Shown piece by piece: positions 25,321 through 26,844 of a stretch of 64,000 bases of DNA. How positions within the stretch are numbered: the stretch's first letter is position 1; every line of letters starts with the position of its first letter. This DNA comes from Terriglobia bacterium (lineage in GTDB: Bacteria > Acidobacteriota > Terriglobia > 20CM-2-55-15): the NCBI GenBank assembly GCA_963664115.2, contig CAXWPJ010000002.1, forward strand, positions 800,001-864,000, read 5' to 3'. The translations under genes and the position numbers were made by a program. The notes under the pieces were generated by a model that did no database searches, had not been told where the DNA came from, and saw only the letters and a program-made list of their open reading frames with translations.

Positions 25321-26844
25321 CTAAGGCCGTTGACCGAGGCCGCGTGTTTCAACCAGCCTGCAGGCGAGTGAAGAAGAAGTTGCGGTCGAGGGCTGCTTTT
25401 CCGTGCGGTCAGTCGCCATCGAATTGGAGGCCGGCTTTTCCACATCCGCGTAGAGGACGAGGTCGCCGGCGAAAGACTCGTGGTGCACGTTTGTCAATCT
25501 GCCGTTGCCCGGAGTCATCGGCAGCGAGGGTTTGACGGCTGTCAGACTGTCGACGAACTGAGGGACAATCGTGATGATCATCCGGTCAACCAGATGGCAG
25601 GCCACGAAGTCCGTGATGACTCCCGCCCCCCCCTCGACCATCAATGAGCGGATACCCAGCTCATAAAGATGCCGCAGTAACATGTGGAGATCGACCCGGC
25701 CATTGGGGTTGGAAGACAGGCGGACGACGTCGGCTCCGCGCGCCCGCAGCCGTGTTTCTCGAAGAGCGCTCGCCTGTTCCGTTGTCGCGATAATCGGCGG
25801 CACGCATGGAGGGCTCAAGAGTCTGGCCTCGAGAGGTGAGCGCAGGTGTGAGTCGAGAACGACCGGCTGTGGGTTCTTTCCGGCAACGAGGCGAACCGTC
25901 AGGCGCGGGTCGTCCGACAACAGTGTGTTGATTCCGACCAGGATCGCATCGTGCATTGAACGCAGTCGGTGCGTCAGGGCTTGCGATTCGGGGTTGCTGA
26001 GCTGGAGCGGTTTGCCGGCCTCGGCTGCGATCGCCCCATCGAGGCTCTGGGCGTAGCTCAATGTCACCGACGGCACTGCATCCGGGTGAGGAAGCGCCTC
26101 CCCTTGCCGCAGGCTGGCGCGCAGTCGGGACACTACGCCGCCGTTGTCGGGCTCGGGCGCAGTTTCAATGGAAATGGTCCCAGCGGCATGGTTCGTGAGA
26201 ACTTCACCTGCGGGGGTGGCGATGGCGGGCAACGGGCTGAGGAGATGGCCCATTTTGGACGCTTTCGTCTGAAGGTATGCGTAATTTTCCGGTCGCGGTG
26301 GAATGTAGTGTCGCGCCCGTTCAACCACACGGATGCCAAATGCCTCCAGCGCTTTTACCTTCTCGGGGTTGTTGGTCGCAAGTCGAACGGAGTAGACTCC
26401 CTGGTCGTTCATCATCGCGGCAGCGTGCGCGTAGCTCCGCACGTCCGCGGGGAATCCCAGATGCAGGTTCGCTTCCACAGTATCCATCCCCTCGTCCTGC
26501 AAAGCATAGGCACGGATCTTGTTGGTCAGTCCGATGCCCCTCCCCTCCTGCCTCAGGTACAGGAGCAGACCGCGGCCTTCCTCGGATATGTAGTCCAGCG
26601 CGGCCTGCAACTGTTCCCCGCAATCGCAGCGTATCGAGCCGAACACGTCCCCGGTCAGGCATTCGGAATGGATGCGAACCAGTGGCGGCGAGCCGTCCAG
26701 CTCACCCATGCGGACCGCGAGGTGCTCCTTACCTTCCCCGTCCCGGTATACGGTAACGGTAAATTCACCTAAGGCCGTCGGGATACGGGCCGACCCTGAT
26801 CGGTGAATCGTGTCCCCTGTGGTTGTTCCGAGATCTACTTTCAT
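25321..26844 (-). CDS. ribA: GTP cyclohydrolase II fused to a RibD/Rib7-type pyrimidine reductase domain
   Basis: [38 protein letters not shown]-terminal [30 protein letters not shown]. Confidence 0.88.

Follow-up and report, generated by a model that had tools for sequence, protein, structure and literature searches.

The 64,000-nucleotide stretch of DNA analysed here (the window) includes one gene predicted to encode a GTP cyclohydrolase II (RibA) joined to a Rib7-like reductase that has no deaminase. This fusion stands at the head of a conserved cluster composed of an MDR-fold dehydrogenase, a PTPS-IV T-fold protein, a GT4 glycosyltransferase, a methyltransferase and a CDP-alcohol transferase, which is present in Acidobacteriota, Chloroflexota, Actinomycetota and Pseudomonadota. 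In the reading that we favour, the fusion turns GTP into 2,5-diamino-6-ribitylamino-4(3H)-pyrimidinone 5'-phosphate as the entry to the PTPS-IV cluster, and the predicted product is a glycosylated pterin-type compound, not riboflavin; taken as a whole, this reading stands at about an even chance. Judged from sequence, its front end, namely the opening of GTP by RibA and NADPH reduction with the 2-amino group kept, and a destination other than riboflavin are highly probable.

Architecture of the RibA-reductase fusion

The fusion gene and its two domains are located as follows:
25321..26844 (-), RibA-reductase fusion gene, a single ORF of 507 aa from ATG
26314..26793 (-), GTP cyclohydrolase II domain, with Zn cysteines C62/C73/C75 and the Tyr113 codon at 26506-26508
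25456..26073 (-), RibD_C reductase domain, Rib7-like, with the codon of Ser263 (RibD Lys152 position) at 26056-26058

A Pfam scan of the 507 residues returns PF00925 (E 6e-65) and PF01872 (E 2e-42) only, with no RibB or deaminase family; the N-terminal DHBP synthase domain of RibBA is likewise absent. The cyclohydrolase domain begins near residue 18 and is connected to the RibD_C domain by a linker of ~50 residues, with no further domain. The protein scores over the cut-off of the ribA family TIGR00505 (241.5 against 205.85) and below those of bifunctional RibD (TIGR00326, 87.9 against 156.35) and of the archaeal equivalog (TIGR01508, 122.9 against 186.45). In the alignment with E. coli RibA, the Zn ligands C62, C73 and C75 are kept together with R57, E61, Q78, E100, R102, K109, Y113 (corresponding to Tyr105), R136, T157, N158 and K162, and the equivalent of Arg128 is retained. 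The RibA residues checked are near-invariant across the 120 listed homologues of the fusion, all of which possess both domains. In addition, the fusion is an unbroken frame in seven of 40 related genomes, all seven in the same family, which together with the two-domain homologues rules out an assembly artefact as its origin.

In the reductase domain, Lys152 of E. coli RibD aligns to Ser263, inside [12 protein letters not shown], and the RibD residues R184, T196, D200, R207 and E299 are retained as R295, T307, D311, R318 and E404. The 120 listed homologues have Ser (111) or Thr (nine) at the Lys152 position, and the deaminase motif HxE..PCxxC is found neither in any of them nor in the fusion. 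Among solved structures, yeast Rib7 (4HA7) and 9L1F/9L1H align with 'vtltyaqsld', and the best structural-sequence matches of the domain are mostly 2,5-diamino-6-ribosylamino-pyrimidinone 5'-phosphate reductases. In the tree, the fusion reductase does not group with RibD. These results are in line with the sequence-only reading, which had described a RibA with its Zn cysteines and catalytic motifs and no RibB, joined to a reductase that lacks the RibD Lys, resembles fungal Rib7 (TYAQSLD) and carries no HxE...PCxxC deaminase domain.

The fusion reductase thus shares with the fungal Rib7 and archaeal MJ0671-type enzymes the YAQSLD motif, a hydroxyl residue at the Lys152 position and the catalytic Asp/Glu/Thr, but unlike them it is a bacterial protein that is fused to RibA, scores under the TIGR01508 cut-off and is unlinked to riboflavin genes. 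Bacterial RibD and RibBA contain reductase and cyclohydrolase domains homologous to those of the fusion, whereas the fusion is devoid of the deaminase, RibB and Lys152, and the canonical genes sit elsewhere in the genome.

At this position the 55 cluster reductases carry Gln (25), Ser (22), His (5), Ala (2) or Thr (1) and never Lys, which is present in 21 of 21 deaminase-fused RibD proteins used as control. A further set of eight cluster-type reductases comprises five without Lys, one unreadable and two with Lys (L287 and L289), and the loci of the latter two have no PTPS match; the stand-alone reductase of genome G244 carries Lys as well. When no reductase lies near the cluster genes (22 genomes), a non-Lys reductase is encoded elsewhere in 16, often in a two-gene operon with ribA; none was found in the other six, two of whose clusters stop at contig ends. 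In yeast Rib7 the same position is Thr35, which favours the non-deaminated substrate, and the T35K exchange is reported to shift the preference only ~3-fold (PMC3631187). On the strength of this one residue, the fusion reductase would likewise prefer the non-deaminated substrate.

The fusion is separate from the riboflavin genes of its host

The host genome, whose close relatives are Terriglobia MAGs, is 97% complete and contains three RibA and two RibD_C domains. A ribD-ribE-ribBA operon is located on contig C12, its RibD harboring both the deaminase and the Lys, and an intact stand-alone ribA and ribH are located on C1 and C10. The sequence-only reading had left it to the genome whether a canonical set accompanies the fusion; ribD, ribE, ribBA, ribA and ribH are all present apart from it, and this complete set rules out the fusion as a replacement for a missing rib operon. 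The cyclohydrolase half of RibBA (L009:5788-6933, G000:C12) is degenerate, having lost the equivalents of Tyr105, Lys101 and Glu92; the ribA on C1 is intact. The host also encodes FolE, a QueD-type PTPS, CofH (over cut-off) and CofD-family genes.

Of the 67 genomes chosen because they carry cluster genes (one, G634, with PTPS only), 11 yielded no lumazine synthase; all 11 are Chloroflexota, and one of them is a 4.4-Mb single contig. In an even sample of 201 Chloroflexota genomes, 75 likewise yielded none. Among these 75, all 14 genomes with the cluster dehydrogenase have RibA, against four of the 61 without it (Fisher P = 5e-12, which overstates the association since nine of the 14 positives have a common type of ribA-reductase operon and are probably closely related; most of the 14 are MAGs). 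RibA is also present in all 32 dehydrogenase-positive Chloroflexota genomes. Two of the four exceptions, the RibH-negative G617 and G649, carry ribA and a reductase of the Asn type, and no gene of the cluster was found in either. The profile, together with the invariant T-fold Glu described below, supports the earlier proposal of a side pathway distinct from riboflavin synthesis.

In a number of Chloroflexota genomes in which no lumazine synthase was found, G617 and G649 among them, a stand-alone reductase of archaeal-like (Asn) type is paired with ribA in a two-gene operon (L243-L245, L254-L259, L276, L277). Instead of a single strong match, the Legionella genome G337 (C1:797734-798506) shows two weak matches to the lumazine synthase family side by side (E 1e-13 to 1e-14). 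In the actinobacterial genomes G393 (L246:1015-2196) and G363 (L247:1477-2625), a RibD-like protein next to ribA begins with the reductase, which has Ser in place of Lys152 and is followed by a deaminase motif, and no Lys-type RibD_C match was found in either genome. These proteins suggest that some actinobacteria follow the fungal step order, which would explain the clusters there that have no reductase.

Genes surrounding the fusion

The genes neighboring the fusion in the window are listed below, with their frequency among the 76 cluster loci defined in the next section:
19250..23048 (-), mdoG and mdoH, genes for periplasmic glucans and recurrent neighbours; mdoH in 20/76 loci
22755..24428 (+), membrane-anchored alkaline-phosphatase-fold protein, predicted structure like LtaS/LtaP/EptA head-group transferases; 18/76 loci
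24439..25194 (+), FkbM-family methyltransferase, accessory, 21/76 loci
27150..27725 (+), histidine-family phosphatase, accessory, 7/76 loci; would remove the 5'-phosphate
27773..28657 (-), CDP-alcohol phosphatidyltransferase, 35/76 loci; true start may be downstream of 28657
28652..29689 (+), MDR-fold dehydrogenase, usual catalytic Zn ligands absent (SxxSxGxE, GY); likely start ATG 28706
29984..30394 (+), T-fold protein of the PTPS-IV subfamily (COG0720), closely similar to SCO6650 of S. coelicolor (PDB 3D7J) and lacking the catalytic Cys
30355..31530 (+), GT4 glycosyltransferase, 72/76 loci
31527..32414 (+), putative class I SAM methyltransferase, no Pfam match, named from homologues; some methyltransferase in 59/76 loci

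The best NCBIfam match of the MDR dehydrogenase is BchC, far below the cut-off; BchC is described as zinc-independent, and the window protein is without the usual Cys/His/Glu Zn ligands. Its model (pLDDT 89) is nearest to the folds of threonine, butanediol, sorbitol and idonate dehydrogenases, which act on polyols or secondary alcohols. Invariant His and Arg residues of the dehydrogenase could hold a phosphate.

The window PTPS matches 3D7J (SCO6650) with E 5.6e-55 over 131 residues. Residues H14, D51, E85 and E120 of PTPS-IV are invariant in all 76 loci, and the catalytic Cys position is occupied by Ala (59) or Glu (17) and never by Cys, so that the classical PTPS reaction is not to be expected. 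PTPS-IV also lacks the QueD Asp-His pair. From PTPS structures we take Glu85 to recognise the ring at its 2-amino edge, and its conservation fits the retention of the 2-amino group. The 17 loci with Glu where QueD has Cys (for example L015, L024, L026, L134 and L143) form a subtype recalling the Glu of PTPS-III, and the subtype accompanied by dihydroneopterin aldolase (FolB) has Ala at this position. The two subtypes may represent alternative ways of cleaving a side chain.

The LtaS-like protein has no PDB match by sequence. Its model has a mean pLDDT of 63, with low confidence in the membrane part, and matches LtaP/LtaS/EptC at a best E of 1e-8 and TM of 0.33-0.36, so the likeness is offered as a family-level lead. 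The histidine phosphatase resembles the A. aeolicus riboflavin phosphatase 9MMH no more closely than other members of the histidine phosphatase family.

A 272-bp element (29685-29956) with ~31-bp terminal inverted repeats, lying between the genes for the dehydrogenase and PTPS, looks like a MITE; the genome has six full-length copies (82-100%), and the element is missing from contigs of two public runs. A pair of DUF1326 and PF09948 (predicted copper chaperone) genes is located upstream of mdoH (17535-18959). Two RNA runs yielded scattered low-depth contigs only (9/30 and 7/30 bins), too little to demonstrate transcription, and promoter and terminator counts are at chance level.

Conservation and distribution of the cluster

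Loci were picked by PTPS, dehydrogenase or fusion matches, with ~10 kb taken on each side, and many of them are kin. In total, 81 genome loci were annotated with local HMMs, and the 76 that contain both the dehydrogenase and PTPS form the base for locus counts. Close PTPS homologues are present in 17 of 300 other genomes of the host phylum (a denominator including the unpublished genome G062) and in 11 of 151 in the phylum of G335. The cluster dehydrogenase is found in 19 of 301 genomes in the phylum of G337 and in 32 of 201 Chloroflexota, where ten weaker matches were set aside as another subgroup.

The dehydrogenase immediately precedes PTPS in 69 of the 76 loci, and compact loci have the order ribA-reductase-MDR-PTPS-GT4. 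GT4 (72) and a methyltransferase (59) are followed in frequency by the reductase (55), RibA (41), the CDP-alcohol transferase (35), FkbM (21), an LPG-synthase-type membrane protein (21), mdoH (20), the LtaS-like protein (18) and an acyltransferase (13); creatininase (8), FolB (7) and the phosphatase (7) are rarer. RibA and the reductase are usually separate genes and are fused in 20 of the 76 loci. The fusions fall in two separate reductase lineages, suggesting that fusion arose at least twice. The window fusion groups with Chloroflexota and Legionella fusions, and its downstream genes are SCO6650-like: the window PTPS matches the SCO6650 type at 64-67% and the Chloroflexota/Legionella type at 24-34%. 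Since two reductase lineages serve one cluster and a Chloroflexota-type fusion stands before SCO6650-type downstream genes, the front ends look interchangeable.

A lipid-handling gene is present in 50 of the 76 loci. The other 26 have none within ~10 kb, which rules out lipid attachment as a universal feature, and in eight of these mdoH lies divergently before the dehydrogenase, as annotated in Methylosinus. By gene content, lipid or envelope attachment appears to be accessory. A FolB gene with its catalytic residues kept occurs in or beside the operon in seven of the 76 loci and in L285. These loci form one clade, and FolB is the sole copy in four of five genomes tested, so the operonic FolB may be a housekeeping gene. 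FolK and FolP families are not found among the recurrent cluster neighbours. A stand-alone SCO6650-like gene was observed on a Streptomyces plasmid (L299:9001-9399) with no other cluster gene.

Proposed pathway and alternatives

In the proposed pathway, RibA, whose residues are in place, would open GTP to the ribosylamino intermediate DARP. The reductase would then use NADPH and keep the 2-amino group, as suggested by Ser/Thr in place of Lys and by the missing deaminase. The weakest link is the third step, in which the MDR dehydrogenase may oxidise C2' of the ribityl chain to a ketone; reduction followed by oxidation would amount to a net Amadori rearrangement, after which the free 5-amino group would close the ring to 7,8-dihydroneopterin 3'-phosphate without FolE. 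PTPS-IV could bind the 2-amino ring through its Glu and either help ring closure or trim the side chain, and the phosphatase, GT4 and methyltransferase would finish the product. In the window subtype, the CDP-alcohol transferase may link the product to a lipid, and its transfer to an envelope acceptor may fall to the LtaS/EptA-like protein.

The chemistry has partial precedents. In Chlamydia, RibA and TrpF make dihydroneopterin monophosphate from DARP (PMC4161248); this bypass of FolE uses RibA-made DARP as a pterin precursor, as proposed for the window, but one isomerase performs the rearrangement there, whereas a reductase and a dehydrogenase would do so here. Pterin glycosides are also known (PMC3546692), and the cyanobacterial pteridine glycosides (cyanopterin and BH4-glucoside; PgtA/BGluT) are glycosylated, O-methylated pterins of the kind proposed, but derive from FolE.

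Oxidation at C2', closure to a dihydroneopterin-type pterin and subsequent glycosylation have in our estimate somewhat less than an even chance. The operonic FolB of one subtype fits a dihydroneopterin skeleton; its restriction to one clade, usually as the sole copy, and the presence of FolE in the host and in 64 of 67 cluster genomes, where another way to neopterin would seem superfluous, hold the estimate at this level and leave room for an isomeric product. With the same front end, the ribityl chain would be oxidised at another carbon or kept whole, and the product, used as a lipid head group, would be an 8-ribityl 2-amino heterocycle, a seven-membered pyrimidodiazepine or an open pyrimidine glycoside. 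Such a product, which we regard as possible but doubtful, would account for a dedicated reduction being retained alongside FolE, for a PTPS-IV without Cys and the QueD Asp-His pair and for the lipid-handling genes in 50 of 76 loci; however, no conserved gene supplies a donor for the second ring, and the operonic FolB points back to dihydroneopterin. The most extended form of the favoured pterin reading, in which an undescribed FolE-independent route makes a pterin from GTP through reduction and re-oxidation and this pterin is glycosylated and methylated, loaded onto a phosphatidyl carrier and transferred by the LtaS/EptA-like enzyme to periplasmic glucans or another envelope polymer, is rather unlikely; if true, it would constitute a purine-derived envelope decoration across at least four phyla.

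Three further readings are improbable. The reductase might act after deamination by the housekeeping RibD, so that the cluster makes a lumazine- or uracil-type derivative, in agreement with the few cluster-type reductases that carry Lys and with the ~3-fold effect of the residue in yeast (PMC3631187); the invariant T-fold Glu85 argues against this, as do the lumazine-synthase-negative Chloroflexota cluster genomes, which have a single RibD_C match and no deaminase motif. Equally little weight attaches to a spare route to folate pterin that bypasses FolE/FolQ, with the sugar genes serving pterin storage: the operonic FolB, often the sole copy, the Chlamydia precedent (PMC4161248) and three of 67 cluster genomes in which FolE was not found speak for it, but the other 64 keep FolE, and the recurrent neighbours include no FolK/FolP. 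Least probable is a role in F420 synthesis, or in riboflavin synthesis by the archaeal/fungal step order. PTPS-IV takes part in F420 synthesis according to a review that gives this as an unpublished result (PMC5041015), and the host has CofH and CofD-family genes, as seven of ten actinobacterial cluster genomes beyond the G335/G348 type have CofH; yet CofH is over the cut-off in only 17 of 67 cluster genomes, and F420 is thus rejected as the general purpose of the cluster. The 11 genomes in which lumazine synthase was not found stand against a riboflavin role, and GT4 and the methyltransferase have no place in either pathway.

Relation to known systems and significance

The window PTPS is orthologous to SCO6650 of the S. 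coelicolor SCO6650-SCO6655 region, a PTPS-IV of COG0720 without the catalytic Cys, and the window locus displays the linkage of this cluster, namely a dehydrogenase, a glycosyltransferase, a methyltransferase and a GTP-opening enzyme; this feature list was drawn from the loci of our analysis and from general background. Work by Spoonamore in 2006 is said to have identified SCO6655 as a Met-type RibA making a formylated product. Two large actinobacterial genomes (L125 and L126) have the order cdp-MDR-PTPS-GT4-MT-LPG-creatininase-ribA, with Met at the Tyr105 position of RibA, a creatininase-family gene and no reductase, whereas the window RibA keeps Tyr113 and is fused to a reductase; the window locus has no creatininase, and Met was found only in L125 and L126. 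The window gene is thus a fused variant of a recognised, widespread orphan cluster. No paper naming the cluster product or a RibA-reductase fusion was found in the full-text literature (subscription journals lie outside its coverage). The text or supplements of studies reportedly by Phillips in 2012, Spoonamore in 2006 and 2008 and Graupner in 2002 may already list such fusions.

What the extra RibA of S. coelicolor and the PTPS-IV subfamily are for is a question of well over a decade's standing. A 2026 review describes the third S. coelicolor RibA as having a function unrelated to flavin synthesis (PMC13151069), and the sole functional statement that we found for the subfamily, the unpublished F420 link (PMC5041015), is not supported by the distribution reported here. 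The profile shows RibA kept for the cluster in genomes without a lumazine synthase found. Cluster genes are commonly misannotated as ribA, ribD or queD-like, and a genome that carries them need not make riboflavin or queuosine. The fusion places the first two proposed steps on one polypeptide, reducing the problem to three enzymes (the fusion, the MDR dehydrogenase and PTPS-IV) and making the old question directly testable.
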